The notes under the pieces: generated by a model
Databases searched by the model: none
What the model saw: the letters and a program-made list of their open reading frames with translations, nothing else
What the model was told of the DNA's origin: nothing
In this document: positions 3,001 through 38,052 of the stretch, in pieces
Layout: each line of letters opens with the position of its first letter
How positions within the stretch are numbered: position 1 is the first letter of the stretch
Translations under genes and position numbers: made by a program
DNA from: a virus
Reading direction: 5' to 3' (one strand)
Virus record (IMG/VR): IMGVR_UViG_3300046169_000069
DNA length: 64,000 nucleotides

Positions 3001-6000
3001 ACTGTAGAGATGTGTTCAACTCGTTGATTGCACCAACAACATCGGTAGCAGCTGTTTCTAGTGCTGGATTTGAAAGAGGATCTAAATCACTCTTCAACTC
3101 GTTGATTGCACCAGATAGAGTCTGACTTGATGTTGATAATGTACTGTTTCCGATTTCACTATGCAACTCGTTAATTGCACCATATATTGTTTTTGCGGTA
3201 GTTCCTACTGTAGTATCTAATTCATTATAATCCGATGAAACCACCTGACCATTTTCTAGAACAGCTGATCCCGTGCGGGTGCTTCTTAGATCATATTCGG
3301 TAAGGAGACTGCCATTGGAACCATAAAATCGAATCGCATCAAATGAGTAATTGTTACCAGTTAAATGTTCATCATAGGCTCGGCCGCCAGGAGCTGGTGA
3401 TATTGTATTACTTGGTATAATATTGTAGTCAGACCCCCAAGTTCCTGTGTGGTTTATTATCTGTTGGGCACCAGTGTTAGTGTGGAGCGGTACTGTCATA
3501 GTATTCCAATAACCAGAACTAAACTGAGCTCCACCGGAACCTAAAGTAATTCTCGTAGGAGATTCAATGCGGTACATAACATTTTCACCGTTTAGAATCT
3601 CTAAAGCATATACCGGATATCCATTTATATTATTAGCAACAGTATTTGGAATTGTAGCATAACTCTGACTATTAGTAAAATATAATGATGTCGTACTGTA
3701 CCCACTAGCGCTTACGGTACTAGAACCGCCACCGAAACTTACCATACCATGTTCTGTTTGATAATATTTCGGAGCTTTTGTTTGAGAAATAATATCTTTT
3801 ATTGATTGAATGTCAGAATCATTTCCACTGATTAAAGTTTGCAGGTCATGATCAGCATTCTCATATGCAGATACAAGTTCTTGTAGAGTGTCTAGAGTTT
3901 CTGGAGACGTTCCTACAATAGTGTCGATCTGTGACTGTAAACTCGCAATATCGCCGTCGTTTGAGGTGATTTGAGTTTGTAAGTTATTATCTGCGTTTTG
4001 GCGAGATAAAGTTTCACCAGAAGTATACTGTTCGAAGTATGCCACGTGTGCCGCATTTGCACTGTCATAGATTGATGACTGTTCTGCGTTAGCCGCAGCG
4101 TAGATCGCAGTCTGTTCTGCGTTAGCCGAATCATAAAGTGCAATCTGTTCCGCTTTATCAGAATCGTAACGTTGATCTTGTGCAAGCAGTTTGAAGTCAA
4201 TATTTGCTTCAACAGTTTGCAGATCTTGTACGATTGTAGATGAACCAGTAACCGCTTCAACAGCAGTAAGAAGTTCTTCTTTCTTAGCGTTCAAGTAGTT
4301 GACCGCAGCAGTTAGGTCGTCATTTGGATTGAATGTCTCTGTGACACTTAGGGTTACAGTTCCTGTTGCAGATACTGCAGGAAGTTTGTTTCCATAACCA
4401 AAACCAGTTTCTTCGATCATTACTGGATGTTGAAGAGAAACTCCCTCAACTCCATTGACAAGATCGGTGAAGTTATTCAGATCATGAATGTATATGGTTC
4501 CAGTATCTTCTGAAGTTCCACCAGACATTTTCATGTTTCGAGAAGTGATAATTAACTTATCATTTTGGATCTGAATAGAGGAAGGATAATCCCACCCATC
4601 TATATTAGATATTCCGCCCCAAGCGTTAGGAGCGAACTGATACACTCTCACATTGGAGAAATTATAACCAGAAAGTTCGCCACCTTTAAATTGTGCCTCA
4701 ATCCAACCAAAACTGCCAGGAATCCATGAATAATTATTACCACTACTTGGGAAGTTGTTGTTGAATAAGTCGTCTTTAGTGACCATTACAACTTCTTCTG
4801 TGCTTCCAAACACTAACCAGTCATCACTAACTGCAAGCTTTCGGTCCGAATTGTATAGGTAATATGCGTTAGAGTATCTTCTGTAAACCGAAGAATACAT
4901 CATACTGTTGTCGGTGCGGTAAAAAGGAGCAGCATTTAAGTTAGATGCGTCCCACACCATCAATCGGCCGTAATTATCGTGGACGTAGTATGATCCGTAA
5001 TTCTGTACAGCAGCAATCATAGTGTTACTTACAACGAAGTTGGACGCCACTACACCACCGTCATAGATAGAATCTTGCAAAGTAGTCACATAAGAAAGGT
5101 CTGTTCTATTATAGACAAATATTCTATCCTGGCCTGTTAAAGCGCCAACAAACACGTGAGTGTCGTTCCAATCTACTCTACATGCGAAACCATCGTAATC
5201 GTTTGACCCTAATGTTGGATAATTTACACCAGTTGGTAAGTCTTCGCTTGTTGTTTCAATGTAGATAGCGTTTCCAGAAACAAGTGATGGAACATCATAT
5301 ATTCTTGCACTGCCAACTACAGTATCAGTACTTACGTTACCGATAAGAACTTTAGAACCGCCATCATATCGAATTTGAGCATAATCATAAACAGTGCGTA
5401 GATCAGCATGTACTTCTGCGATAGGTAGTGAAGATGAATCTATCGTAGCAAGTTCGTAAACTAGGAAGTAAATCTCACGAGCATCAAGGCTGGTGTTGTC
5501 CAACCTAGCCATAACTATAACATGGTCACGAGTTATGAAGTTACCTTCTGGTTTAGAATTGTATGCCGACGGCAATACTACTCTTGTGCCTAATCCAGTC
5601 TGAACCGATTGGTTTTCAACATACTCTGCAGAAGTGTAGACAAAGAATTCGTCGTCACCTTCGATAACAGTGTAGTACTGATCACCAACATCTTTATTGT
5701 AAGTAATAGAAGTTAGTTCTTGTGGTAGAGCAATGTGACCTGTACCCATACGACCACGAATTTCGTTTTGTAATAGGTTTGTGTCTGCAAAAGAACCACT
5801 TACAGATGATGTGAAATAATTGTAATCGGAGTCGTGATCTACAATAAACTGTGCTTGAGACGCATTGACCGCATCTTCAAACCCTTGACGTTCAGCGTTT
5901 ACCGAAGCTTCGAATGCAGTACGATCTGCATTTACCTGATCAATATCAGCTTGAACTGCATCACGGTGTGCTTGACGATCCGCGTTTACAGATGCTTCGA

Positions 6001-9000
6001 ATGCAGTACGATCTGCATCTACCGCAACGATTGCAGCCGCGTTAGTCGCAATGTTTGCAGTGTTAGTTGCAACGTCTGCCGCGATTGAAGCGATGTCAGC
6101 ATCATTTGACTGGATTGCTGCCAAGTTTGCTTCTAGATCTGCACGTAGTTCCTGACGCTTAGCTTCCAAGTAGTTGATCGAGTTGCCTAGACCGGATGCT
6201 GGAATGATGGTGTCAGTAATTGTTTGCGTAACCGTTTCTGCTGGCGAGATCGCAATAAGACGACCGAAATTGCCAGAAGCTGTACTAGAATCACCTCGAA
6301 CTAAACGCTCAGGCGGTTGATCCATATTTGTTAGGTCATAAACAAACATAGCAGTACCGGAAGAACCAGCTACAATCAATCGATTGCTTTCTTCATGCAT
6401 CTGGTATGGGAAAATCCCTAGGTTGTTTTCTGGCGGTGTTATTACTAACGGAGGCAATAATAAATTATTCGCATCATAGATGAAAATAAGACCAACCGAA
6501 CTCGTAATTCCAGGCGTATTGCCCTCAAGTGTGCCTACAATTAATCTTGTGTCTGTTAATGCTATAGAGTATCCAAACTGAAGGTTATTTGTTGCATATT
6601 CTGCAGGCGGATATAACTTAGTATGTGCTTCATTCAGGTTATCTGGGTTAAACAAATAAACAGAACCGTGATTTGGTCCATCTATATCATCTCCATACGC
6701 ACCTACAGCAATACGTGTAGAAGAAACTTCGAACGAACCAGTAAGTTCGCCATTAGCCCAAGAGATAACGTCGGAGTTTTGATCGCCAGAAGTTAATTCA
6801 TGTCCATTGATCAAATGACCATCACTTTGTCGGATATCTAAAACCCAAAGTGCATCAACACCACTATATCTAAATGCACAAAGTTTATCGCCAAATACTC
6901 TCAGTTTATAATCGACTATACTAGCAATATTATATGTACTAGTTCTTAAGTTACTTCCAGATTCCGATAAAGGTTGTTTCCATATAGTATCCGTTCCTGA
7001 AGTTTCGTGCGCATAAATGTAATCTTCTGAAACAGCAAATCCATTTATATTTTGGTTTTCCGCAGTAGCATAAGATTTGGAAGCCGAAGTTATGCCCAGT
7101 ACTAAATCTGCCCATTCGTATCTGTACACTAGATGTCTATTGACATTCCAATTAATGAATAGAGCTTCACTGTTGGCGTCAATATGATATATGTAGTATC
7201 CGCTAAAGTAAACTTTTGCAACCGGAGTAGATGAATCGACACTATCATACACATAGACGTTATGATTATCAGCAGTCGCATAGAACTGACGGCCCGCATA
7301 CTCTACATCAAAGGTAATTGTCTCACCGATGTCTGGAGTAATTAGAGGAACGCCTTCAGCACCAATTGTTGTCTGTAGTGCAGCTAGTGTACCAGTGTTT
7401 GTGTTGATTAGACCCTGTAGAGTGCTGTCTGCATTTGAGTATGCAGTCACGATCTCTTGTAGAGTGTCTAGTGTCTCTGGAGAAGTACCAATGATTGCGT
7501 CTAACTGTGCTTGTAGTGCCGCGTCACCTGTGACGATTGCACTTGCGTTAGCCTGTTCTGCCAACTGAGCACGGACAACTTCTGCGTCTAGATTAGACTG
7601 TACTGCATTAACTTCATCTACTGTTGCACCACTTGCGGTTCGAGCTGCATTTTCTGCAACGATGTCATCGATCTGTGTTTGTAGACCCGAGTCAGCAGTT
7701 GTACGGTTTGAGATTTCTGTATTAAGTGCAGTAGACTGTGCAGAGATTAGAGTTGCTTGTGATGTCTGTGAAGATTCACGAGCAGCAGTTTCTGCAACGA
7801 TCTTCGCATCTAATGCATTGTCTGCAGAGATACGCGCTTGTGTTTCAGCAGTGTCTGCTGCCGCACGAGCGTTTGATTCGTCAACGATTGCACTTGCGTT
7901 AGTTGCATCACCAGCGATACGTGAAGTTTCTTCTGCAGAGATTGCCGCAACACGTGCGTCTGTTTCTGCCTGAACAGCTGTAGAAGTGGCACTATTGTCC
8001 GCCATTTCAGCGTGTAGTTCGTTGATCGCAGCACCAATGGTTTGTGCAGTAGTGTCTAGATTTGTTAGAACAGTTGAAACGTCGATTACGTCTTCATATA
8101 CTGCAGGCACTTCTTGTGAGGCGACCAAAGAATTGTGTCCGGCACTGACGGCGTAAGTTCTAGTGATTGCACCTGAAGTGGGTGTGAGACCAGTAGTGGA
8201 CTCATTATAGATCTTAACAGTTCCGTTGTCATCATTTTGTAAATAAACTTTACCGTTATCGACATCGACGAACTGTTTTTTGGTTGTGGAAATAGACCGA
8301 CCAAGATAAGATACTCCATTAGCATCCCAAGTCCATTCATGAAGATATGCATAACCTGAGACATGAGTAGTAACATATAGTTTATTATCAGTCATATCTA
8401 CATCAAACCCGTAACCTCGCCAGTAGGTATTCAAGTCGTTACTAGGGATAGTAGTATGTAACTCAAAAGTTTGACCTGTTACGTAGTTTTTTAAATTTAC
8501 TCTTTCATAGTTATTATATCCATCTTTGCGCTGAGACCATAAAATGTAATCTCCGCGAATATCAAATCCCCATACATTACCATTCCCTATGAAGGTATCT
8601 TGATTGTTGTATTGGGAAGTTGGGGATATCATATGTACACTGGATGGATTTGCACCATCTGTTACGTCCCAGATAGATATTCTGCCTTCTTCATAAGACC
8701 AAGTGTATCCTATAGCAATCTTAGTTCCGTCCTCGTTCATCTTTAGATAAACTTCTGTAGAACCTATGTTAGGTAGACCGTTATAAATTAGATTTGTATT
8801 AGAGTAAACTTCATTTCCTGCTAAATCGTATACTTTGAATCCTTTTTCAAAAGAAACAAATACATGCGTGTCGTTAGAAACGAGATTATAACCGAACTTT
8901 TGTATCGTTCCGCTAGATTCTAACACATAAGTGTAGTCTTCTGGGCCTGGGTTTGTTGATAGATCGTAGTGATAAACTCTACCAGTACCAGCGGCAGGGA

Positions 9001-11816
9001 TTGCGTCTGGCGCACTAACCCACAAATGGTTTCCTGTTTTCGCCACAGAAGCACCGAACGAACCCTGAGATCCGGATGGACTTGTGATGGTGTGGGTTAT
9101 ATTACCGGAGTATAAAATATCCCCCGTATATACACTAACAGAACCGGACTTAGCAACAGCCATTTCTGCTGGTGTTTCTGCAGTTACTAGGTTTTGACCA
9201 ACAACTGTGCTTACTTCGTGACCTAGGTATGATTCTAGAGATGAAATATCAGATGAGTTTGCAACCATCAACGCCTGTAGATCACCGTCAGCACTTTCGA
9301 ATGCAGCTACGATCTCTTGTAGCGTATCCAAACTTTCTGGAGATGAACCCAAGATCGCATCAATCTGTGACTGAATGCTTGATAGATCTAAGTTTGCTAG
9401 GTCCGAAGACTTCGCTAGTTCTACCCACTGACCAGCGTGTGCAAAGTATGCAGCACCCTCTGCGTGGACGTGTGCAAACATACCGTGATTTGCAGATGCG
9501 TCTGGTAGATCTGCCAATGTAGAGAACAATGGGTGTGTTGCACCAGTTGCTTCGACTTGGTTAATCTGATTTTGTAGATCTGTTTCTGCTGCAGTAGCAC
9601 GTGCAGTTTCTGCAGAGATTGCAGATGCATTTGCTTGTTCAGCTGATGTTGCGCGAGCTGCTTCTGCGTCTACCGCTGCCTGTACTGTTGCATCACCTGC
9701 AACACGAGCAGTTGCTTCTGCAGTGATTGCTGCTTCACGTGCTTCTGCTTCAGCTTCATCTCCAGCAACACGGGCTGCAGTTTCGGTTGAAATTGCACTT
9801 GTCTTCGCTGCGTTATTAGATGATACTGTTGCGCTAAGTGAATCGATTGCACTTTGTAGATCTGAGTCAGCATCTTCACGTTGTTGCTTTTCTGCAGCGT
9901 CAAAGAATGTGCGGTCAGAGACTTCTTGTGTCAATGATGCATTTACTGCTGTAATAGTAGAAGAGTTGCCTATGATTAGACCTGTAAGATCACTATCCGC
10001 ACCTTCAAACGCCGCCACAACTTCTTGAATTGTGTCTAGTGTTTCCGGAGATGTTCCAACGATTGCGTCTAGTTGTGATTGTAGAGCTGATAGATCTGTA
10101 CCAGTTACAGAGTTTAACTGTGATTGTAGATCGGAGACTGCAGCTGCACGTGTTTGTGCTTCTGCTAGGTCAGCAGCAATACGTGCTGATTGTTCTGCGT
10201 CTACCGCTGCCTGTACTGTTGCATCGCCAGCGATACGTGCTGCAGATTCGTCTGAGTCTGCATCAGCACGAGCACTTGCTTCAGCAACGATAGCCTGCAG
10301 CGTTTGCTTGTTCTGCAGATGTTGCGCGAGCAATTTCCGCATCAATTGCAGCACCACGTGCCGTTGCTTCCGCAGCGACTGCATCAGCGATATCCTGAGA
10401 TACTGCCTCACGTGCGCGTACGACTGTGAAGAATAACTTATTGTCACCTTCAGCAATAACGTCTGTGCTTGTTACTGCGATTGGAGTTGCAGTGACACCG
10501 TCGTATACTTCCCAACGATCTTCTAGTTCGTTCCAACGTAGCTGAACTGCAGGTTCGTCACCACGCATGATACGAATACCTGCGTTAAGTACCGGAGCAC
10601 CTGTAGAAACATTGCTGTTTAGATCGATGATATTGTCAGCGACTTTTAAGGTCTGACTGTCTAGAGTTGTTGTAGTACCCTCGACGGTCAAATTGCCTTC
10701 GATGGTTACATTATCTTCAAAGACTTTATCGCCAGTGATTGTACCGTCTGCATTTAAACTGTCAACATATTCTTTTGTTGCAGCGTCTGAAGCATCTACT
10801 GGAGCACCGACATTTTTAACTTTGTGTGTTCCCATATCAACAGCACCACCAAACTTAGTTGGTTCGCCGCCGACTGTAGAAATTGTTTCTCCAACAGACA
10901 TTACTAGATCTGACTTCAACTGGACACTTTCGTCGCCAGCGTTTAGATCAATGTTACCACCACCTGTTGCGCCGAACGACAGGTTCTGACCTGCGTCTGC
11001 GTACATAGTGATTGTACCGCTGTTGTCTTCTAGAATCTTAGTACCGTTAATGTACAGAGAGCCTGGACCGATGTATAGATCTTTCCATACGCGATCTGGA
11101 GAACCTAGTGTGTACTCGTTGTCAGCTGATGGAATTAAGTTTCCTGTCCAACCGTCGCTGTCGTTATACGTGAACTGTGACGCTTGTAGTGCGCTAACAG
11201 CGGCACCACGCGTTGCAGATTCAGCAGCAATTGCCGCAGCGTTCGCAAGTTCTGCTGCAGACGCACGAGTAACTTCTGCATCAATGTTCTGTTGTAGAGT
11301 TACGTCTCCTGCGATACGCTGAGTGGTTTCGATGCCGATAGCGGCAGTGTTTGCACTTAACGATGAGGAGTTTGCAGCTAGAAGTGATTGAATGTCACTA
11401 TCTGCACCTTCGAAAGCGGAAACGATCTCGACAAGAGTGTCAAGTGTTTCTGGTGAAGCGCCTACGATGGAGTCAATTTGAGTTTGTAGTGAATCTACTT
11501 CTGCTTGAGTGTCAGCATTAACTCCTAGTGAGTCAATCTGGGTTTGTAGAGATGCAATATCTGAAATACGTGTTGCTGTTTCGGATGCGATTGCAACTGT
11601 GTTACTGTTTACATCTATGAAAATTTGTGAGTCTGAGTCGACGATAGAACTGCCGGAACCAGTGAGTGCACCTTCATCTACTAGAGATGAGACTGCGTCT
11701 GCGATGGCCCCTGCAACTATAGTACCATCAGCTCGGATTATGACGACATCATTGACGGTTAATTCACCTTTTACGTCAACGCCGTTCTGAATCCTAAACT
11801 TTTTGTTAGTATTCAT
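1..11816 (-). CDS. Giant modular tail-fibre/adhesin-like virion protein (>3900 aa, runs off the left edge); coiled-coil stalk with inserted beta-propeller (FG-GAP-like) and other domains; split by two apparent frameshifts
   Basis: ORFs 10281..11816 and 899..10456, plus an open frame 1..~908, join after removing one base at ~10294 and one at ~910. Ala/Asp-rich heptad segments, 7 SPE[TS]LDT motifs, FG-GAP-like repeats (FGRSVALDDTRLYVGS..GKVEVFD; FGYSLDVEGGKLVVSS..GSLYIYD). Confidence 0.75.
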
Positions 11817-18306: not shown

Positions 18307-19011
18307 TTAAACTGCAGAAATGTCGTCAAGAACCATCTCACGAAATTCTTCAGAAGTCTCTGACCAGTCAAATACATAAGAAACGGTAACACGCCAGTCA
18401 TCTGTAGATGCGGCATGATACATTAACTTTTCTGGTTCGTCATAGTGTCCGAAGTATGCAGCCTTACAAGTCCATACTCCTGGCGTGTCTTGACAGCGAA
18501 CAACTTCTTTCGTTTCTGGGTGAATGTAGTCAAAGTAACCAGAACCATCTTCTGAGTAAGAGAAGATAAGATTAAAACCTGGCGCATTTGCATTGTTATG
18601 CCATGAGATATACCCGCCCGGTGGATAGACTGCTGCAAGTGCATTGTGTTTAACAGACAAGAAGTTCATCATCTTGTCGTTTAGATCACGTAGGTGATGA
18701 GTCATGTCACGTTTAAAGATTGGGTCTGCATCTTTTTCAAACATCTTATGTGCGCGGTCAGATAGTTTGAAGTTATATCCAACCATCTCTTCGGGAAATC
18801 CATCATGTCCCTTTCCCATTGCAACGATGTCATTCATGTATCCTTCACCAACGTAGTATGAACGTTGACGAATATGTTCTGCTGCAGTCAAGTGACAGTT
18901 CTTTTCAAAACCCTGCATAGTATGCAATTTGGCATACTGGTCTAAAACCTCTAGCAACTCTGGGTTATTTACCTCTACGTGCTTTAGATATTGGTCGTTT
19001 ACCTGTGTCAT
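18307..19011 (-). CDS. Putative 2OG-Fe(II) oxygenase / cupin-fold hydroxylase
   Basis: YPPGGYISWHNN..NLIFSYS..GYF..MYHAA....RVTVSY matches the double-stranded beta-helix layout: HxN in place of HxD, distal His, 2OG-binding Arg. Confidence 0.6.
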   Translation of the reverse strand: MTQVNDQYLKHVEVNNPELLEVLDQYAKLHTMQGFEKNCHLTAAEHIRQRSYYVGEGYMNDIVAMGKGHDGFPEEMVGYNFKLSDRAHKMFEKDADPIFKRDMTHHLRDLNDKMMNFLSVKHNALAAVYPPGGYISWHNNANAPGFNLIFSYSEDGSGYFDYIHPETKEVVRCQDTPGVWTCKAAYFGHYDEPEKLMYHAASTDDWRVTVSYVFDWSETSEEFREMVLDDISAV

Positions 19012-19736
19012 ACGATTGGAGTATCCTTGTTCAACCCAGCCGAGAAGTGTCTTAAAATTACGGGTCCCGTCTCAGGTCGTGTTCTTGCCCAATTGAGGGC
19101 ATTGTAATAATTCCACCTCAAGTCATCATCAAAGATACCAACCTTGAGGTCCTTATACTTTTCTTCCTTCTCAGTTAACCACCAAAGCGAGAACTGATCC
19201 CAAGACTTGAGACTGTCTGCATACCCTTCTGGCCACCAAGAGTCGTTCATCTGTCTGAATGTCAAGTCCCACCAATCGTCCATGAATTCACGTACAATCG
19301 GTTTACTCATATCATACAAACAAACGCCACCGCATAATGTAAACTTCGCCATACCCTCTGGTGTAGAGAAGTCGCGTTCTGCGTAGATGTAATCTCTATC
19401 ATCTGTTAACGCAGAAAACACCACATCGTGGTCTTTCATCTCATCCCAAACTTTTACAATGTCTTCGTGCTCACATTCCATATCAGCATCAATGTACATT
19501 GTCAAGTCATACGGAGACTTTGCCATCCCCCACAACTTCGCACGGTAGTGATCATCACAAAAGATGATATCATCCGCGACTTCGCGACCACGATCATCAA
19601 TAAACCGTTCTTCGGTCACTAAACAAATCTTGCAATCCTCATAGTAATCTCTAATGGATTCGGCAAGATTCAATGCGTACAAATAAAAGTTGCGTTTCTT
19701 AGACGCAACTAACAAAAATCCTTTACTCTTTTCCAC
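19008..19736 (-). CDS. GT-A fold glycosyltransferase (GT8/GT77-like)
   Basis: SPYDLTMYIDAD (DxD), LCGGVCLY and WDQ motifs. Confidence 0.75.
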   Translation of the reverse strand: MEKSKGFLLVASKKRNFYLYALNLAESIRDYYEDCKICLVTEERFIDDRGREVADDIIFCDDHYRAKLWGMAKSPYDLTMYIDADMECEHEDIVKVWDEMKDHDVVFSALTDDRDYIYAERDFSTPEGMAKFTLCGGVCLYDMSKPIVREFMDDWWDLTFRQMNDSWWPEGYADSLKSWDQFSLWWLTEKEEKYKDLKVGIFDDDLRWNYYNALNWARTRPETGPVILRHFSAGLNKDTPIV

Positions 19737-20185
19737 TGTCTTCGGCCTCTAGTTGTTCTTGCAGAATCATAATTGAGTACATATCTACTTCAATCTTTGA
19801 CTTTGCCCGACGCAGTTTAGCCTTCAACTTGCGGTTCTTAGAGTTCTTAATCTCTTCAACCTCAAACGCTTCTAGTTTGTAGTTGAACAGTTTTTCAAGC
19901 TTACGTGCCTTTTGATGTTCTTCTTCACGTATCTTGTCTTCTTCAGCTTCTGCCTTCTTGCGAACAACACGATTCAGATGTTTCCTTATCAATCGCATCT
20001 TCACCTAGAGAATCAATCACTTCTTTAAAAAGTTCGTTCTCACTACCGTCCTTATCATGACGATGTAAAAACATTTGTTGGCGCGTCACTCTACCAACGT
20101 CATCTTCAAGTTCTAGAATACAGTTTAGTTCTTTCTTTTCGTCTGTTTCCCAGAACGCATTATCCATCCAACGCTTATAACTCAT
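19723..20185 (-). CDS. Hypothetical protein (~153 aa, charged helical C-terminus), one apparent frameshift
   Basis: 19943..20185 joins 19723..20004 after removing one base at ~19974; overlaps the start of the glycosyltransferase. Confidence 0.6.
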
Positions 20186-20270: not shown

Positions 20271-20299
20271 ATTATAACACAGTACGGTTGATTATGCAA
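20271..20299 (-). promoter_or_regulatory. Possible sigma70-type promoter TTGCAT-17-TATAAT
   Basis: Minus strand ttgcat aatcaaccgtactgtgt tataat, overlapping the upstream stop codon. Confidence 0.35.
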
Positions 20300-23200
20300 C
20301 ACGTACGTATAATGTATATGTTTCAGTAACCTCTGTAAGCGTATCTGAAATCGTTGCACCCACGTAGTTACCCAAGAAAGATCTTGCATAGTTACCAACG
20401 TAATCTCGAGCATAGTTACCACCAAATGTACGTGAGTAATTACCTGTAAAGTCTCCAACATAGGCAGAGTCACGATTGCGTGAGTATGCACCAGAGTAGG
20501 CCGAGTTACGGACACGAGCGTATGCAGATACACGTACGCGTGAGTAGTTACCTACGAAGTCGCGTGAGTAAGTGCCAGTGTATTCACCAGTAAATGTACG
20601 TGAATAATCACCGACATAGTTGCCACCGAAGTCGCGAGTATATGTGCCAGTGTATTCACCAGCAAAGTCACGGGAGTAGTTACCTACATATTCCCCAGCG
20701 AAGCCGCGTGAGTAGTTGCCCGCATACTGACCAGAGAAGTCGCGAGTATATGTGCCAGTGTATTCACCCGCGAATCCACGAGCATAGTTACCTACGAAGT
20801 CGCCGACAAAGTCACTTGCATAAGCCCCAGTGTATTCACCAGCAAATGTTCTTGCATAGTTACCAGTAAAGTCTCCAGCAAAATCACGTGCATAATTACC
20901 AGCAAATGTTCTTGCATAGTTACCAGTAAATGTGGCATTATATGTTCCCGCATACTCACCAACAAATCCACGTGAGTAAGCACCAGTATATTCACCAACG
21001 AAGTTGTTGTTGTAAGTACCAGTGTATGCGCCTGTGTATTCACCTACGAATGTTCGGTTATAAGTTCCTGCGTATTCGCCAACAAATCCACGTGAATAGT
21101 TACCCGCAAAGTTTCCACCAAAGTCACGTGCGTAGTTTCCTACGTAGTTTCCACCGAAGTCTCCAACAAAATCACCGATAAAGTTACCAGCGAAGTTACG
21201 AGAGTAGTTACCAGTGAATGTGCGTGAGTAGTTGCCTGCAAAATCTCCAGCGAAGTCACGCGAGTAGTTACCAGTGAATGTACGTGAATAGTTACCAGCA
21301 AAGTTTCCTGCAAAGTTAGTCACACGATCACGAGCATATGTTGATGCGCGGTTGCGGATGTATGCAGAAACACGAGTCACGACATATGCAGAGTAACGAG
21401 TACGAGTAGATGTACGAGTATACTCACCAGTAAAGTTACCGGCATATTCACCCGCGAATCCACGAGCATAGTTACCTACAAAGTCACCTGCATAGTTACG
21501 GGCGTAGTTACCGATAAAGTTACCAGCGAAATTTGTTACTCTATCACGAGTGAAGTTACCTATGTAATCAGTAATTCGTGTACGTGCATACGAAGAGTTG
21601 CGATTACGCGTAGATGTACGTGTTGATGTACGAGTAAAGTTACCTGTGTAATCAGTAATTCGTGTACGTGCATAAGCTGAGTAACGTGTGCGTGTTGAAG
21701 TAATTGTCGATACACGTGTGAAGTTGCCTACGTAGTTTGTTACGCGATCACGAGCGTAAGCTGAGTTACGTGTACGAGTATAGTTTGTTGCACGAGTTCT
21801 TGCATAAGCACTGTAACGAGTACGAGTAGATGTGCGCGTAGATGTACGAGTAAAGTCACCAACATAGTTAGTAATACGAGTACGTGAGTAGGCACTGTAA
21901 CGAGTACGTGTTGAAGTACGTGTTGACGTACGAGCATATTCACCTACGAAGTCACCAGCATAGTATCCAGTACGTGTGTAGTTACCTGTATTGGTAAAGG
22001 TCTGAACACGATTACGAGTGAACGCACGAGCGTAGTTACCTGTGTAGTACAATGTACGAGTGTAGTAACCAGTACCTGTACCCGTACGTGTTGACGTACG
22101 GCTGTAATTGCCTTCATATGAGAACGGACGACTACGAGTATAGTTTCCTACAAAATCACCAGTAAAGTTGGTTACACGATCACGTGAGTAGTTTCCAGCG
22201 TATGAGAACGCACGACTTCGATTATACGTAGAAGTACGGGTGCGCGTATAGTCGCGAGAGTAGTTTCCAGCGTAAGAGAATGCACGACTGCGAGTATAAT
22301 CCTCTGCGGATACACGAGTTCGGGCATAGTCCCCAACAAAGTTGCCGGTAAAAGAACCAGCCGTGCCTTGAGTAACCAACCCATAGTAATAATTTTGAAA
22401 AAGTTGCATTTGGAGAGTGCCTCTTGAATAGGTCACTCCATTGTGCGTAATTGAAGTTGCGTTGGCGTTAGTGCTGGTCGCAATAGTCGTAGCGTTAATA
22501 ACAACAGAAGCTCCCGCAGTACTCTTTAACCAATATGTGACATATTGGGCGTACTGAGTAGTACTTCCCGAATTAACAGAAGTTCGGGTTGATGTGCGTG
22601 CGTAGTTGCCTACATACGAAGTACCGCCCGTAACTCCAGTATAGTTTCCTACAAAGTTTCCTGTAAAAGAACCGCCAGAACCACTGTAAGTAACGCCGTA
22701 ACGAGTTTCCAGCCCAAAGTTCTCTCGGAAAGTGCCTCGATTATACGTGACACCACCATTGGTTATTGATGTCATGGTGGTTCCTTGCGCTATATAGCGA
22801 CAGAAGAACCGCCCACATAAACAATTACAGTACTGGATTCATTATCAATAACCCAACCATCTGTCACTGTGTTGAAAGGACTCTCCGAATAATCGTCAGT
22901 AGCACCACCAGAACCTGTAGAAACGCGAGTAGAAGTTCGGGTGAAATCTGTACTAGTTGGAGTTCCAGTGTAGTTACCTAAATAAGATCCCGTTCGGTTT
23001 CGAGTAAAGTTTCTTGAATAGTTTCCGCCGAAGTTGCGCGAATAATTACCCAAATAAGATCCAGTACGAGTACGGCCGTAGTTACCTATAAAGTTGCCTG
23101 CGTAGTTGACATCTGGTTCGCGAGTATAGTTACCCAAATAAGATCCGGTTCGTGTACGCGCATAGTTACCTACGAAGTCACCTGCGTAGTATAGAGTACG

Positions 23201-25697
23201 AGTATAGGCTGGGGTACGTGCATAGTCTGCAGCATAGTTACGTGCATAGTTGCCAGTGAAGTCGCCGACATAGTACAGTGTACGCTGATAGTTCAAAGTA
23301 CGTGTTGAAGTACGTGTTGATGTGCGTGAATAGTTTCCTACAAAATCACCAGCATAGTTACCAGCAAAACCACGAGAATAGTTGCCTACAAAGTCGCCAG
23401 TAAATGTAGTCGCGTAATTACCTACGAAATCACCACCGTAGTTGCCTGCGAATCCTCGAGCATAGTTGCCTACAAAGTCGCCTACATAGTCTCCGACATA
23501 ATTTCGGGCGTAGTTACCAATAAAGTTACCAGCGAATGTGGTTGTATAGTTGCCTGTGTAGTTACCTGCAAAGTCACCAGCGTATCCACGAGCATAGTTA
23601 CCTACGAAATCTCCGGTGAATACTGTAGTGTAGTTACCAACGAAATCGCCACCGTAGTTGCCCACAAATGTACGTGCATAGTTTCCTACGAAATCTCCGG
23701 TGAATACTGTTGTATAATTGCCAACAAAGTTACCAGCGTAGTTAGTAACACGGTCACGTGTGTATGCAGACGCACGAGTACGTGTTGACGTACGTGCATA
23801 AGCTGAGTAACGTGTTCTCGCAGAAGTACGAGTAGAAACACGAGCATAGTTACCTACGTAGTTTCCTGCAAATCCGCGTGAGTAGTTACCTACGAAGTTA
23901 CGCGAATAGTTGCCTTGGAAGTTACGTGAGTAGTTTCCAATAAAGTTGCCAGCAAAATCGGTCACACGATCGCGAACATATGAAGAAACACGGCCACGAG
24001 TAAACTCACCCGTGAAGTTAGTCACACGATTGCGTGTGTAAGTAGAAACACGGGCACGAGCATAAGCATTTGCAAAGTTAGTGACACGGTCGCGAGTGTA
24101 GTTAGTGATGCGGGTTCGTGTGTAATCTGCAGAGTATGCTGATGTGCGTGTACGAGTTGAAGTTCTTGTATAAGCTGAGTTACGAGTACGTGAGTATGTT
24201 CCGGCATAAGCTGATACACGGTTTCGTGAATATGTACCAGAGTATGTACCTGTGTATGAAGAAACACGAGTACGAGCGTAAGTGCCTGAATAGGCAGAGT
24301 TACGAGTACGTGCATATGTACCTGCATAAGCAGAAACACGACCACGAGTGTATGCAGAAGAACGAGAACGCGTGAACGTACCAGTAAAGTTCTGTACGCG
24401 ATTACGTGTGTAAGTAGAAACACGTGCGCGTGAGTAAGTTCCCGCAAAGTAACCAGTAAATGCAGTTAGTCTATTACGAGAATATGTAGAGATACGGTTA
24501 CGAGCATACGCGCCAGAGTACGCAGATGTGCGTGTGCGCGAATATGTTCCAACGTATGTTGAGACACGGGTTCTCGCATAAGTGTCTGAATACGCGGATG
24601 TACGAGTTCGTGAGTAGGTTCCTGTATAAGAGGAAACACGTGTACGAGTGTAATCAGCCGAGTAAGTAGAAACACGATTGCGAATATAAGTCCCTTCATA
24701 TGAAGATGGTCGCGTACGAGTGTACTCTCCGACGAAATCTCGAGAATAGTTACCTACGAAATCTCTATTATATGTTCCTGTGTAGTCTCCAACAAAGGTG
24801 CGGGAGAATGTATCTACACTATTACGTGTGTATGTTGAAACTCTATCGCGAGTGTAAGCCGAAATACGCGTACGTGCGTATGATGAGTTACGTGTGCGAG
24901 AGTATGAACTATTTACAATAGTACGTCGGGTGTTAGTTGCATCACCAACAACAGACCATGTTCCAGGCAGTGTTGGTACACCTTGCGCAGCTGAACGGAA
25001 CTGATAAGATCCGATCGCACCGGCCGTCGCACGGAGGGATTTGACACGTTGACCAATAGTATATTTGATCTGATCATCCGACATTTCTTTGAATCCGTCA
25101 AAGTTGGATGACCCATCGTAACAAATAGCAACGGGACGCACTGCGTTAACCACAGGCATCGTTACACGTTGATAGATGTTGTAATTTGTTACTGTACCAT
25201 CACCGTGTGTGTCTGAGAAGACATTTGCGAGGAAGACCGTATAGTCTGCGCCAGGTGATGTACTAGAAAGTTTGAATGTACCGACATAGTCATTCTGGAC
25301 CATGTTACTGAGTACACGACTTGCAAGATTATCCAAATCTGGATCTACCATTTCGTAGAAGCCTGGATTTGGGGCCTGAGTCATAATAACCCACAGGACG
25401 AACAAAATCGGCACCAGTTTCATCTGCAACACCGCCCACCTGACGTAGAGGTGTGGTTACAGTTGTAGATGTGATATTAGTAATTGGGTGAGTGCCCGCA
25501 GATTCATTAAAATACGCGTCCGTAAATGAACCAATATTAACATCACCAGTTAAACTGATATCTCCGACTTCACCAGCAGATGCATCTGCTAATGCTTGTC
25601 CCACCGCATAAGAAAGATAGTTCTCTTCTAGCGGTGTAAATTCCTGTAGGTCACCATTAGTATTTTTAATTTTTAGTGGGATACTAGATGCTGACAC
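20292..25697 (-). CDS. ~1800-aa tetrapeptide-repeat fibre protein with self-complementary arms (predicted giant beta-hairpin), two apparent frameshifts
   Basis: ORFs 25329..25697, 22790..25432 and 20292..22775 join at ~25373 (YYDSGP|NPGFYEM) and ~22792 (SVAI|AQGTTMTSIT). N-terminal ~260-aa globular region, then ~320 [YFRS]xxx units. Two late promoters upstream. Confidence 0.75.
20367..24904 (-). repeat. Degenerate 12-nt coding repeat array (YxRx, RxSx, FxGN, STRT, YxGT units)
   Basis: Strict 4-residue periodicity; recurring DNA words tagttacc and tacgag. Confidence 0.9.
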
Positions 25698-25816: not shown

Positions 25817-26284
25817 TTACTGTGGTGGAGTTGGCCAGTTAATGTCAGTTAAATTCTCAATTCCGTCAAGATTTTCTGTAATATCACGCAACTCTTGACG
25901 ATAACCTGCCCATGCATTCTTCATATCGAGTGATAGTGGGGCGTCTGGAATTTGCGTCCAATCTGTTCTCATCAACTCATTGTTGCGAGTCTGACGAATT
26001 TCGATATGTAAAGATTGTAAATTGATCTTCCAAGAATGACCGTCACGGTAAGCGTGTTCGTTCGGAGGTTCGCCAATATCAACGAAAGACTCTGACGATC
26101 TGTCATAAAAATTTCTGCGGACGAACTCTAATGGGGTAAGAGAGCCCATGCGTTCATCGCCAATCAATTCGAATCTACTAGACCCGTCTGGTTGTAAACC
26201 TAATTCAACTTTTAAAGTTGCCGGTTCTATCTGTAGGTTCATAATTGAACCGTTTGATTCATTAATATGTGCTAACCAACTCAT
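25817..26284 (-). CDS. Tail fibre assembly chaperone (Phage_tail_APC-like C-terminus)
   Basis: IRQTRNNELMRTDWTQIPDAPL..WAGYRQELRDI..INWPTPP. Confidence 0.85.
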   Translation of the reverse strand: MSWLAHINESNGSIMNLQIEPATLKVELGLQPDGSSRFELIGDERMGSLTPLEFVRRNFYDRSSESFVDIGEPPNEHAYRDGHSWKINLQSLHIEIRQTRNNELMRTDWTQIPDAPLSLDMKNAWAGYRQELRDITENLDGIENLTDINWPTPPQ

Positions 26285-31673: not shown

Positions 31674-34600
31674 TTAGTGATGAAAGACTAGAGCATCATC
31701 TTCTGATTGCCAAGCAGGGTTTACTGATCCACCCGCATCTCTATATTCATCTGTGTATCGAATACCGATCGGTATATCCAACCAATCAAAAGTCTCACCA
31801 CTGTGAGTAGCGGATAGGTTGACACTATAGTTACCTGAAGCTTCAGAAGTAATCGTGTTCACAAACTCTGTACCATAGTTCATAGTAACAGTACCCGTAG
31901 TAGACCATTCCGGACCAAATGTGTATGTTATTGGATAGTAGTGTGTGTTATGACCTTCTGGTCTTTCGATTCCGTAAGTTATGAATCTAACATCATGTTG
32001 AGTACCATTTACAGATGAATCCGTTTCAATATATATTGGTTGAACTGTTGCTTGACCTTCTTCTTCTGAGGTCATTTCTGGACTATATGGATAAAGTGCG
32101 TGGAAGTCTCGACCACTCTCCCAATATACGCCATCATGGGCGACAAGCTACAACGATACCTTCGTCTGTATCAACCGTCATACGATCTCCAACAGGCAAG
32201 TCATAATTGAACGTGAGTGTTTGAATGATATCGCCAGCTGGTTCATACAAATCACCACCAAATGCCTCACTAGTAGGTGGAGACAATCTAATGTCCATCT
32301 CTACAGTACCAGTATATGGTGTGGATTCACTAACACCCGACATATCAGATTCAACTAGAATGAACCCTGTGCTACCCATTTCGCCCCTTTCAGAGACCGA
32401 TAAATTAGTTGCAAAACTGTCACCGACATGATCGTAGATTGTTTTGTTTCGAAGTACCGACACACCGTCACTTGTGTGAGACATGATCGGATCATTCGGA
32501 TCATTATCATTAGGTATTTCATAATCGTTGATTTTTTTCAGGGTGCTTGTAATTCCAAATCTTTCTAGATAGTCAAAGAAGTTATTAGCTGGACCGTCAG
32601 TAAATTGTTGAATAGGTCTATCCAACCACTGACTAGTATGCACTAGAGTTCGTGTTCCAACATCCGTAGCGTTTACTTGAGAATAGACTTTCAACGATCC
32701 ATCAAGGTGGAACTCAAGATTGAATCTGACTCCTCTAGGCTCCCAACCAGATGTACCTGACCACTCTCTACCCACATCGCGGCTACTTGCTGATATTGTT
32801 GGAACGGTCTCAGCGAAAAGCGAACTTATGTCTCTGACCTCATTGGTCTCGCTTCCGGTGTCGGTATTAGTTTCGCCGCCGGTGTCGGTATTAGTTTCGC
32901 CGCCGGTGTCGGTATTGGTCTCGTTACCAGCATCTGTTCCAGAATTCGGAGTCGTGCTAGAAGAGGTTGTAGTAGAACTTCCATTTCCACCAACTCCAGT
33001 CACTAACGATATTGTACGCAAATCTCTAATAGTAGGAGACTTAGAAGAGTTCTTAGCGTGCATAACAACTTTAACTTGGAACGCGGTAAACTGATCTAAC
33101 TCTGCAGTATACTCGTACTGACGGAAGTTTTGGGGATTATCATCTTCTGGTAGAGGTTTATCTATTTCTACCTTAATCCAATTTGTGATAAAACTTCCAC
33201 TGTTATCTGTAGTTAATAGTGCGTCTTCGTCTGCAGCAACCTTAACATATACTTCGAAATCAGAGCCTGGTGGACGATTCGCTGAGAACATAACCTTCAG
33301 AGATTTAGACGAATCGTTGATAGTCACTGCACTTGATATGTGTTGTGCTGCGTATCCAAATGTGGTATAATCAGGCGTATCCGCCGTCGCGTTATAAACA
33401 TCATAATCAACGACATTTTCTAGTGCAAGAACAGAAACTCTCTGTAGATCGATGACCGGAGAAACTTTAGTATCACTTGTCGTCATCTGAAGATTGAACT
33501 TCATTGTCTCATTACCACTCGCGTTCTCTGAAGAAGCGACGATGCTTGGTTCACCGTTTATGTTGTAGTCATTTAAGAATACTTGACGTGCGTTCGCCAG
33601 ACTACTTGGTAGACCATAACTGAACTGACCTAGACTACGACTGTCGTTAGAAGAGTTACCGCCATAAGACTTTGCCTTTGCATCGAATAGTTTTGCACTG
33701 ACTCCTGTCTTGTTAGGAATGACACTTTGTATCTGCGGTATAAAACTATCATAGTATACTTGTTGTGATGCAACGACTGTATCACCACCACCGACACCTG
33801 ACATAGGTGCAGACGCGGACACTTCAATTGTATATCCGTCCCAGTTCACACTCTTGATGTCAAATGTTCCGTTGAACTCTGAGGCAGCAACACCACCGAT
33901 GGCATTCGCAACACCTGAGATCGCAACGTTGTCACCCCGACTGAAACCATGCCCTTCGTGATAGACCTTGACAGATGTAGAACCTGAAGTAGTCTCCAGT
34001 GGATCGGTTTTCAGTGCAACTTTTGGTAGAGGCGCATTGTCGAGAACTAACGCGCCCGATGTAGAGAAATCGGCTCTATATAGATCAAACATCAAATCTT
34101 TAGATTGATCTGGTGACCAAGTATATCCATTCTGTGACAAGAACAATGAACCAGCAGCCGCCTGTCGGGATACTTTATCTTCACGACTACCAACAACAAA
34201 CTCATATGTTTCCGCAATGTATATGTTATACTCAACAGACTCACTGAGTATTGCTATAGCATACTCTTCGCCGCTTGTCAAGTAAATCGGTTCATCGAAT
34301 TCTACGGTTGTTGCATTTTCCTGTACCTCTGACATAATAGTATCAGAACTGAAAGGAGTAACTGTTATGTCGGCTGGATCAACAAAAGTGTTAGACCCTG
34401 GCACAATACGATTTGTTGGCACACCGCTTTCGACTGCACGAATCTGAACCTGCAGAGGTACAGTCGCATCTTTACTTTCTAGGTAAAGATTGACCTTGGT
34501 TAAGAATAGTCCGTTAGGGTTCTCTATTTGATCTACAAAGAACGTTTGTGCGAGCGGATCACTACGACCCCCATCTCTTTCAACTACGCGTGTGGTGCGA

Positions 34601-37600
34601 ATGGTTTGTTGTACATCGTCAATAGAACCTGTTGATGAGTAAGATGCGCGAGCAGATACTGTTGATTCGTTTTCATTATTAACGCTAACATCAAGTAATT
34701 TAAATTCTTGTTTTCCTGTACGGAACTTCAACGTATCTGTGTTAGGCAAGAAGAACGAACCAACCAGTTTTCCAGACCCATCTGTCTGTAGTGCAGATGG
34801 TCCACCTAGATCAGTTGGGTACTCAGTCGCAGATGCGTACTGGCTTCCAAACTCTTGTGGGTCGTCTGCGAATCGTTGAGTCGTCGCTTCTTGACGTACC
34901 CAAGAACTTACATCTTTGTCACCGAAGAATGCGAACATCTTAGTATTAGGCCGCAGACCCCTAGCAACAAAGTTGATTCTACGAGAACGCATGTACGGAG
35001 TAACTTCTTCTCCTGCGACCTGTGTTCCCGCATAATCAAAGACAGTGAGGCTCATTGATGCATCTGCACCCGATATGTATCCCGTCTGAGTGTATCCAAG
35101 AATACCAGCGCCGCCTCCTCCATAGTCCCACAAATCATCTCCATACTGATCTTGTATGTAACCATCACCAGTACGTTCAATCGTTTGCATCTGTGGAGTT
35201 AAGTCTCGTGTTTCGATCCACTCATCCGAAGATGGTGATAGTTCCATCGTACCCACTTGACTTACAACTGCGAACGGGTTAACGTTCACAATGTTGGTGG
35301 CTAAATCCTGCAATATATGTGAGGTGCTGGTGAATGGTAGTGTCACCAAGTCGCCATTTTTCACGACAGCGTCAACGTTGTCCGAACTATAAGATAGTCG
35401 AACAGAGTTCTGACGGAAAGATGGTTTCAATTGACCAGTTGGATCTTGAGACGCTCGATAGTTAGGATTGTTGACATCCGAATAAAGATATGAGGTGAAA
35501 TTATCAGCAACAATACCCGTCTTTATTATTTCCGCCCCAGTATCTGGATCTATGATAGGCAAGTTGACGGTAGCTGACTCTAGTAAGTTGAGTGTTGTAA
35601 TTTCAAGATTTTCAATACGTTTCTCTAGTTCACCGATATCTTTCATAGTGAAACGTTTGTTTGGAATATAAACACTTGATAAATCTGATCTATCAAAAGT
35701 ATATGGGTTCAATCGGAACTTGTACATTGCCATTGAACCTGTAGGAATTTGTGGTTCACGTGGGCTGACCGCCGATTCTCCTTGAATGACTTGTAACTCA
35801 CCAAACCCAATACCATCTCGACTGTCTATTGCGTTAGCGACAAGAATATCAATACGTGGTAGATAGTATTCAACATCATCAATTGAAATTGCAGATGCGT
35901 TCTGAGGCAGTGGTGTCTTCACCACGAACTCACGTAAATATGGCCCTAAGAAATCTCTGGTAGGTCGGAAATCAAGTACATCAAGTAGACAGACAATTTG
36001 TCCCGAGACTGTCGTGTACTTCGGAATATCTTCGTATGCATCATCCACATAAGATGCTGCGCAGAAGTATCCTTCTTTATCTTCGTGTGCATAATAATCA
36101 TACACTACTTGTACGTCTTTGGCAACACCATCATAAGGAATTACGTATCCAGATTTCAGATATGCAACTGACCGATCATAAAAGTTGTCTCTTTGACCAC
36201 CATCAAAAGTGAACTGGTGTGTAATGTCTTCTGCATCGTCCCACGGGCCAGTTTCGGCTGATGGTCGATACTTAACCGACTTCAACTTGATACCATCAAC
36301 ATAGTCCAAGAAAAGTGGACGACCTTGTTGATCGGATACAGTCACACTGCCGTATTCTACCGATTCTGTAAGCGTCTTTGATCGGGGAGTGATATTAGTC
36401 TTTTCTACGTAATATGCAATAGTATATGATTGACTAGGAGTGAGACCAGTATACTTACCAGTCATATCAGGACTTATCGATAGGATCTCGCCAGCCTCTT
36501 CAGCGATTATCCACTGCGACTGTTCTACACCTGATAACGTAAGTTCACCAGCACCATCTGCTTGCGTAGTTGTTGTAACCTGCGCAGTATAGTTTGCGGT
36601 GATGCTGTCTTTTGTCGGTGTCGTTCTTGGTAGTTCAAATAGTAGGCTATTATCAGCAGCTTCGTGAATAACGCTATCAACCATAACGATCTGTGGGCTA
36701 TTAGGGTCGAGTGTTGGGTCTTCTAAGATTGTCGCCTCAGAGAAACTGTGATAACCACCGCCCTGTTTAGGGTCCATGCGAATGTTAAAGATGTATAAAC
36801 GAACGCCTGTCGAGTCACGCTGTACAGCACGTACGTTACAGTAACCAATGTAATCACCCGCAGATGATGTTCTTAGGCGTTGATGACCAAACGATGCAAG
36901 TCGGCCGAAACCTTGTGACCCTGAAGCGCCTTCTTCGATGTAAACATAGTTACCGAATGTCGCTGGTACAGGTTCGTTAAGTTTCTCTAGTGTATCTCGT
37001 GCCTTTGGTACAGTAATGTCCGTAGCACCGATGTCTAATCGATATCCATCTACATAAGCAATGCCTTCACTCACATCTAGGTTTAGATTGTCCGCATCCT
37101 TATCTTCAAAGATTGCAGTAAACTTTTCGACAACATAGTTACCTGACTCTTCTTTCGTTCGTTGAGCCATTAATTTATTGATTCGATTGTATGCATCAAA
37201 GTTAGACACTTCACGAGTGATTTTACCATCTACAATCCGTGCGATGAATATAAAATTGGACTCTTCTTCTGGAAACTCTACGCGACGAGCATTAAACAAC
37301 TCTCGCGTAGTAGGAATTAGTTTGATCTGATATCGATGTGCGCCAGGAGCAGTGTGATCCGGAACCTGTCCTTGATTGTCATAGAGCTGTTCGTCATCAC
37401 CTTCTGTAACAATTTTCTGTTCTATTCTAAATCCAAAGTCTTCCTCTGGGGTATCACTGTACTTAGAAATAAAGGTGTCGCCTTTCTCTAAGTATACAAA
37501 GTGTCCCTGTATAAAAAAGTCTCCCGAAGAAAAGTGTGCTTTGGTTCCACGACCAGCAGCAGGAATAGGATCTGAACTGTCATCAATCACTTTTAAGTTG

Positions 37601-38052
37601 ACAGATACATTATCTACACGGGTTATGATTTCTTGAGTTGATACGCGAGGCGCTTTTTCCGTATCGGTGACCGCAGAGGTATCTGTGTATTGGACATACA
37701 GAGTCTCTGGATCGGTGTTTGTGGCGGGAACGATTTCAACTATTTTAAATTCTATTGTCCCGTTGGTCAACGTCACGCCAAATAAATCAGGCGTCGTTAC
37801 ACTGACAGAGTCCAACCGAATATACTCGACCTTGTTGTTTACTGTCGCACCGCCCGGATTGACCATCGCACCTTCTTTAAAGATGTTCTGACCAAATCGT
37901 GCAATCTCTTCTTGAATGATTGTTTGTTGTTCAATTAATTCACGAGCTTGGAGCGCACGGCCGGAGTTGTATAGAACACGATAGTAACCATCATTCGCAT
38001 CATAAAAATCGCGATATGTTTCTCGAAACGTTTTGCTTGTAAAATCTGTCAT
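31674..38052 (-). CDS. Large baseplate-associated structural protein (DUF4815/VrlC-like) with a C-terminal extension
   Basis: YYRVLYNSGRALQAREL, APGAHRY, RTKEESGNY, DFRP, VNPFAV, DPLAQTF and GSLFLSQNG motifs. Removing one base at AGCT ~32145 fuses 32134..38052 in frame with 31674..32075. Confidence 0.75.
32853..32925 (-). repeat. Three 24-nt tandem repeats encoding an ETNTDTG[G/S] linker
   Basis: ccggtgtcggtatt(a/g)gt repeated at 24-nt spacing. Confidence 0.85.

Follow-up and report, generated by a model that had tools for sequence, protein, structure and literature searches.

What kind of protein could be read forwards along one of its halves and backwards along the other, with every short unit meeting a complementary counterpart? 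The question is raised by the minus strand of the virus record IMGVR_UViG_3300046169_000069 from IMG/VR (64,000 nucleotides (nt); this whole stretch is referred to here as the window), where two long open reading frames (ORFs), 25432-22790 (880 amino acids, aa) and 22775-20292 (827 aa), are built almost wholly from tetrapeptides such as YSRT, RVSA, FVGN, YTGT and STRT. An initial annotation, made from the sequence alone, had described an N-terminal and a C-terminal arm of 133 tetrapeptides each, complementary unit by unit in opposite directions, and had proposed that the chain folds back into one very long antiparallel beta-ribbon whose register is set by big/small and charge complementarity. 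On the best reading of the sequence, the region is a single tail-fibre gene of a marine T4-like phage (20292..25697), and its protein probably carries an antiparallel, folded-back shaft in which two arms of 656 residues are paired in one register. Of the earlier proposal, the pairing of the arms in one register and the big/small complementarity were borne out, the former by the mirror code and by mirrored insertions and deletions (indels) in relatives, but the charge part was not.

The two arms originally delimited, 24904-23309 and 21962-20367 on the minus strand, are each 1596 nt long and translate into 532 aa, i.e. 133 stop-free tetrapeptides. In a recount on the window, Arg occupies position 3 in 47 N-arm units, every one of which lies opposite Gly or Ser, as had been claimed, and reciprocally 47 of the 48 C-arm units with position-3 Arg face one of these two residues. 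The remaining correspondences are of the same kind: RxSx units lie opposite [YF]xRx in 31 of 33 cases, RxTx units opposite [FY]xG[NDE] in 13 of 13, and YxG[TA] opposite YxG[TA] 10 times, while RTGS faces R[AP]FS in 3 of 3 cases, at exactly the positions predicted from constant sums. The rule for STRT-type (SxRx) units, which all conform in facing [FY]xG[NDE], also holds, but the count is 13 of 13 and not the 14 of 14 first given. The resulting table of unit classes is almost deterministic, with RxSx opposite [YF]xRx, RxTx and SxRx opposite [FY]xG[NDE], and YxG[TA] opposite itself. Arg-rich and Gly-rich blocks are exchanged oppositely between the arms, as described, so that the number of Arg per six rungs is approximately constant (6.4 +/- 1.1) and that in a single arm ranges from 0 to 6. 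Over the 133 units not a single position-3 Arg:Arg pair occurs at the proposed register, while other shifts give 12-26 such pairs (mean 17.5).

The initial annotation had suggested comparing mutual information (MI) between registers, and this comparison singles out one of them. The MI of unit classes in the antiparallel register is 1.364 bits; it is 1.05 and 0.69 bits at shifts of one unit and 0.20-0.49 bits at shifts of at least 2 units, while 2000 shuffles of the units gave 0.21 +/- 0.04 bits with a maximum of 0.38. Rungs occupied by an allowed pair make up 89% of the total vs 35-38% in shuffled or shifted arms. The order of units is aperiodic, again as claimed, and no periodic pattern in parallel register, of the kind expected from tandem repeats, was found. 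Forward (parallel) alignments of the arms gave 0.19-0.36 bits at all shifts, and this background-level correlation rules out a parallel beta-solenoid or tandem-repeat shaft. The ungapped register also reaches beyond the 133 units noted before. It comprises 164 units (656 residues) per arm, with the N arm at 24904-22937 and the C arm at 22334-20367, both on the minus strand, and N-arm unit i faces C-arm unit 164-i+1; the N arm lies in a single frame, and the segments of 133 units are its first and the C arm's last.

At the level of single residues, MI was conditioned on the position within the tetrad, which removes the trivial period-4 signal. It peaks at one register, with 2.78 bits vs a background of 0.92 +/- 0.12, in which position 1 lies opposite position 1' and position 3 opposite position 3'. 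The partners of position-3 Arg are Gly (36) and Ser (11) and never Arg. Ser is found opposite Arg in 20 of 22 cases, Thr opposite Gly in 10 of 10, position-1 Arg opposite Phe in 27 of 29 and Tyr opposite Tyr in 51 of 64. Since positions 1 and 3 share one face of an extended strand, the rule reads as cross-strand packing on the face of an antiparallel pair. The two arms together (1312 aa) contain 177 Arg and no Lys, His, Cys, Trp or Met, which leaves Arg as their sole basic residue. Acidic residues are not correlated with facing Arg (r = 0.12 and -0.01), and it is here that the proposed charge complementarity failed; the rule concerns size and shape and the placement of Arg opposite an aromatic ring.

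The same relation is conserved in relatives. Homologues that are intact in a single ORF occur at six IMG/VR loci, with sizes of 1566, 1729, 1800 and 1911 aa, and these were tested by mirror local alignment with a scoring matrix learned on one of them, L002, an IMG/VR contig with 98.8% nt identity to the window over 5.6 kb. In L003 531 residues are paired per arm and in L004 495, both with no gaps, and in L006 667 with no net gap; the mirror alignments score 211-238 vs 24-34 for forward controls. When tokenised, the arms contain 133/133, 124/124 and 168/168 units, respectively, without net gaps, and 87-90% of the rungs obey the class rule vs 35-40% in controls. The rule also holds in stretches unique to L006, which are missing from the protein of the window. 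Substitutions between L002 and L003 are few, and all three double changes preserve allowed pairs. The mirror pattern is also present in further family members with the same Arg/Gly alphabet, namely P0008 (161 ungapped), P0034 (111 ungapped) and P0072, in the last of which 16 rungs flank a tight turn (YTRD|FVGD) and a tip domain is absent.

Comparison of homologues had been proposed as a test of whether repeat gain or loss is compensated in both arms, and the indels do have partners of the same length in the mirror arm. Between L002 and L004 the N arms differ by indels of 28, 12, 4, 20, 16 and +44 aa, and for five of these (5/6) the C arm has an indel of equal size at the mirror position; only the 16-aa indel has a partner that is displaced, by about 25 residues, within a 28-aa repeat. 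Relative to L004, with which it is 90% identical, L006 has one additional block of 176 aa in the N arm, and its C arm is longer at the mirror place by 156+20 = 176 aa. Insertions between L002 and L006 total 136 aa in each arm. Some indels are common to L004 and L006 by descent, and the number of independent paired events is therefore roughly ten, not more. A further difference of 92 aa is due to the tip, where L003 has one copy of the tip domain and lacks the second.

Among named records, Phage C48C1 (Kyanoviridae) is the closest, and its homologue is a single ORF of 3347 aa (L001:5138-15181), flanked by annotated tail-fibre and chaperone genes. Its C arm is interrupted by five globular insertions of 107-315 aa and its N arm is uninterrupted, with no insertions, and the repeat segments separating the insertions remain paired, in their proper order, with the N arm. 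Pairing is thus kept despite the insertions, which indicates that one strand can loop out whole domains. In this protein one insertion together with the adjoining repeats is duplicated in tandem (TRHRSYLYYSTD at residues 2009 and 2084), and this duplication could be either real or an assembly artefact.

AlphaFold 2 (AF2) monomer models were made for two short relatives, P0034 (616 aa) and P0072 (436 aa). In both of them the N-terminal domain is predicted with a predicted local distance difference test (pLDDT) score of about 90 or more, and the C-terminal 20-25 residues (pLDDT 85-97) form a long strand beside the strand that leaves the N-terminal domain. The adjacent strands are E580-614 with E241-273 in P0034 and E402-434 with E260-290 in P0072. 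For P0034 the strand ends add up to 853-855, in agreement with K = 853 from the code. Single-domain fold alignments to the P0034 model cover residues 41..616, so that the C-terminal strand is modelled as part of the N-terminal domain. Both models thus lend indirect support to a fold-back topology. A complex prediction with matched fragments of P0003 (493-548 and 1493-1548) scored 0.00 and carries no weight either way. In searches with known structures, neither a Foldseek run against the PDB (E <= 0.001) nor a phmmer search of all PDB chains with the 1800-aa protein (E <= 1) found a match. A beta-prism-like fold (MABP, perforin-2 P2) was considered, with a best VIA-align Z of 7.3, which is below a meaningful level, and no family is claimed.

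The N-terminal domain itself consists of three internal copies of a beta-beta-alpha-beta repeat, each about 85 aa long (P0034 residues 1-262 in alignment A1); hhalign between the repeats gave a probability of 91-94% with E from 1e-6 to 2e-7. There is a resemblance between TYTLYVR at the C terminus and the strand with which repeats 1 and 2 end (TTLYQ, YNIYQR), and when the C-terminal strand is taken as the missing strand of repeat 3 there is a weak gain in hhalign, with a probability of 61.5% vs 49.8%. The hairpin may therefore be an insertion into the beta-hairpin of the third repeat. If this is true, it would independently support fold-back in cis, and the protein could be a monomer.

In the arrangement that we propose, the chain would run outward along the N arm, reverse at the tip and return as the C arm, so that N-arm residue i would lie beside C-arm residue K-i in antiparallel extended (beta) strands, and the C-terminal strand would dock onto the N-terminal domain. 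The side chains at tetrad positions 1 and 3, which make up one face, would set the register by a rule that allows Arg opposite Gly, Ser or Phe only and never opposite Arg, Tyr opposite Tyr, Thr opposite Gly, and Gly opposite Gly, Arg or Thr. As the order of units is aperiodic, only one register satisfies this rule and both arms would have to evolve together, like the two sides of an RNA stem. From these considerations we infer direct contact of the arms, beta geometry and folding back in cis, a shaft length of about 0.2 micrometres, and a role in reaching the receptor with tip domains at the distal end.

Several observations weigh against this folded-back shaft. The 31 rungs nearest the turn satisfy the simple class rule in only 14 of 31 cases and include two Arg:Arg rungs; pairing in this part, if real, uses other motifs. 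The arms have a net charge of about +105 and no facing acidic residues, an uncommon combination in a ribbon that is stable by itself; missing partners, counter-ions or oligomerisation may account for it. AF2 leaves the arms below pLDDT 50 in both P0034 and P0072, and the strand limits in the latter sum to 692-694 vs about 684 from the code, so that the agreement in register is approximate. More distant members of the family use other tetrad alphabets, and the mirror rule was found only in relatives with the Arg/Gly alphabet. Finally, the code alone is compatible both with a cis hairpin and with antiparallel pairing between chains, either of copies placed head to tail in a bipolar rod of about double the length, or in a domain-swapped trimer closed by neighbours. 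Such pairing predicts the i + j = K rule and the mirrored indels equally well, and phage fibres are in general usually oligomers. We nevertheless consider it rather unlikely, because the AF2 monomer puts the C-terminal strand (pLDDT 95) on the chain's own N-terminal domain, some members turn tightly without a central dimerisation element, the copy number of the tip domain varies (1 or 2) without a symmetric counterpart, and the two ends of a fibre must differ, one serving for attachment and the other for the receptor.

The mirror relation could also be attributed to arms that are not in contact at all, either because some third element is the common reference for both or because composition is constrained to a constant density of Arg along a rod. 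The almost constant number of Arg per six rungs would agree with the latter, and a contact between the arms appears in no model. A constraint on density, though, would not yield Thr opposite Gly or Ser opposite Arg with the regularity given above, nor position-1 Arg with Phe rather than Tyr (27/29); neither the collapse of the signal within two units of shift nor the unit-exact mirrored indels would be explained, and a third element would itself need mirror symmetry. This explanation seems to us improbable, more so than pairing between chains. Least credible of all, to the point that we give it hardly any weight, is an origin by mutation or assembly, i.e. an ancient inverted duplication of DNA that is read on one and the same strand, or faulty assembly of a gene rich in repeats. 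It is true that the gene is highly repetitive in DNA, with many families of direct repeats, and that the assembly contains frameshift errors. On the other hand, facing units are complementary and not similar, and the same architecture, with differing arm lengths, is found in six independent metagenomic contigs and in one phage genome record. No inverted repeats were found in the DNA of the gene and its antisense identity profile has no peak, which means that the pattern is not a nucleic-acid palindrome; together with the independent contigs, this refutes an artefact as far as sequence data allow. The antiparallel fold-back in one chain is retained as the probable explanation.

A more specific version of this fold-back can be put forward as a possibility, although we hold it to be less likely than not to be correct in all its parts. 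The fibre would be a single chain, not a trimer, with a pseudo-threefold N-terminal domain and the hairpin inserted into the beta-hairpin of its third repeat. The shaft would be a two-stranded beta ribbon of about 0.2 micrometres (up to about 0.35 in C48C1), specified by a digital code of Arg with Gly, Ser or Phe, Tyr with Tyr and Thr with Gly, and with its paired indels and its domains looped out on one strand it would amount to a natural programmable protein 'duplex'.

Reversal of the chain is already known from the tip of the T4 long tail fibre, where each gp37 chain turns back at the tip and the antiparallel strands line a needle that is held together by His-bound iron (Bartual et al. 2010, as summarised in PMC9659904 and PMC6957217). 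Both are fibres of T4-like phages in which the chain runs towards the tip, reverses and returns with its antiparallel halves adjacent, as would be the case here, and in both of them residues that point inward or to the same face recur at i and i+2. The differences are considerable. The fibre protein of the window has no sequence match to any solved structure, there is no His in its arms and hence there are no HxH iron sites, and 656 residues per arm are paired vs a few dozen in gp37. No such aperiodic Arg/Gly/Ser/Phe/Tyr code, and no mirrored indels, are known from gp37. The gp37 needle is a six-stranded homotrimer, whereas the triplication within the N-terminal domain would here be compatible with a monomer. 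Judged by sequence, the fibre protein does not appear to be a member of the gp37 needle family, and the common principle would be chain reversal in a T4-type fibre.

Two other groups of proteins offer partial parallels. In SMC and Rad50 proteins the N- and C-terminal halves of one chain pair over hundreds of residues in an antiparallel, length-matched coiled-coil. One chain is folded back in these proteins too, and the lengths of the arms are kept matched in evolution; their arms, however, are built of alpha-helical heptads and serve another function, while the arms described here follow an i/i+2 tetrad with AF2 beta strands at the base. In the triple beta-helix, the adenovirus beta-spiral and pentapeptide repeats successive repeats are packed in parallel, and correlation is expected between i and i+period. 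These likewise build elongated structures from short sequence repeats, but in the fibre protein information is found only in the mirror register and the order of units is aperiodic. A literature search found no description of an aperiodic pairing code of 656 residues per arm or of mirrored indels.

If the arms do pair, a long-range protein fold would be specified by a simple, readable code of residue pairs, maintained by compensatory changes according to a logic so far tied to nucleic-acid stems. This would constitute a new shaft architecture for phage fibres in a large marine family and would explain both the tuning of fibre length in steps of four residues and the display of globular domains along the shaft. 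It would also provide a natural set of rules for designing register-specific pairs of beta-ribbons.

In L002, where the fibre gene is intact, the whole of it is a single 1800-codon ORF (L002:9677-15076). On the minus strand of the window the gene begins with an N-terminal globular domain of about 264 aa (24905..25697), which is conserved in the family and holds the triplicated repeat, followed by the N arm (22937..24904), a tip or turn region of about 200 residues (22335..22936), the C arm (20367..22334) and a C-terminal tail, YVGATISDTLTEVTETYTLYVRVA, with the stop codon (20292..20366), whose ending ETYTLYVRxA is conserved in the family. The tip contains irregular units and two copies of a domain of about 53 aa with the motif W..S.V.I..TSITxGGVTYxRGT (22855-22692 and 22532-22374). 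The assignment to tail fibres is in accordance with the position of the gene within a block of tail-fibre genes. The upstream neighbour (25817..26284, minus strand), which adjoins it but does not belong to the fibre protein, matches a tail-fibre assembly chaperone (Pfam PF16778 Phage_tail_APC, E 8e-15; PHROG tail fiber assembly, E 4e-13), and further nearby ORFs of the window match tail-fibre PHROGs. A lead as to a place in the virion comes from weak tblastn matches of the repeat region, with 31% identity, to S-RIM2 ORFs annotated as 'structural protein'. The ORFs downstream of the gene in window 18307-20185 (234, 242 and a split 159 aa) were without a match in Pfam and PHROGs at the thresholds applied, and Pfam found no families in the fibre protein, its N-terminal domain included. 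Two more giant ORFs lie on the minus strand in the same structural block, 899-10456 (3185 aa) and 32134-38052 (1972 aa), and they have neither tetrad arrays nor the N-domain motifs or C-terminal motif of the fibre family.

In the window the gene is read as three ORFs, with 25697-25329 preceding the two long ones. Two frameshifts, which the initial annotation had already indicated, do exist in this assembly, as an extra C and an extra TA relative to L002, and over the 5.6 kb compared the two sequences differ in length solely at these insertions. The former lies at 25371-25374 on the minus strand, where a C4 run stands in place of C3. The latter, at 22791-22796 on the same strand, is (TA)3 in place of (TA)2; it leads to a TAG stop at 22790-22792 and hence to the apparent split into two genes, and the first copy of the tip domain spans it. 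Over 11 kb, in which the two contigs are 98.4% identical, the window has at least five frameshifting insertions, at 15374, 17692, 19973, 22791-22796 and 25371-25374. In each case a homopolymer has gained a base, or a (TA)n run a TA, and an ORF that is whole in L002 is disrupted. One example is the 159-aa ORF 3' of the fibre gene, which is cut into 19723-20004 and 19943-20185. As all of the insertions sit in such runs and the ORFs are intact in L002, the frameshifts are most likely systematic assembly errors and the locus 20292-25697 is most likely one gene.

The fibre protein belongs to a wide family. A HMMER search gave 692 representatives at 50% clustering, 203 of them at E <= 1e-30, and most match the N-terminal domain. 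Complete members span 404 to 3347 residues, those of 404-2503 aa share the C-terminal ETYTLYVRxA, and T608, T610 and Y612 are invariant in alignment A1. The mirror score of about 90 other complete members was at noise level with a matrix trained on the protein described here, and a code-free test of aromatic coincidence on the family was not discriminating. Some members carry additional elements. P0008 possesses four mini-loops that do not follow the tetrad, AQGTGxSIVxGEG, at residues 495, 552, 824 and 873, two in each arm and roughly mirrored, with sums of 1368 and 1376 vs a hairpin constant of 1363. In P0004 (1798 aa, cut off where its contig ends) about 700 aa with FG-GAP and LamG-type domains (PF14312, PF13385) are inserted inside the N-terminal domain, and this insertion precedes an N arm that resembles the one of C48C1.

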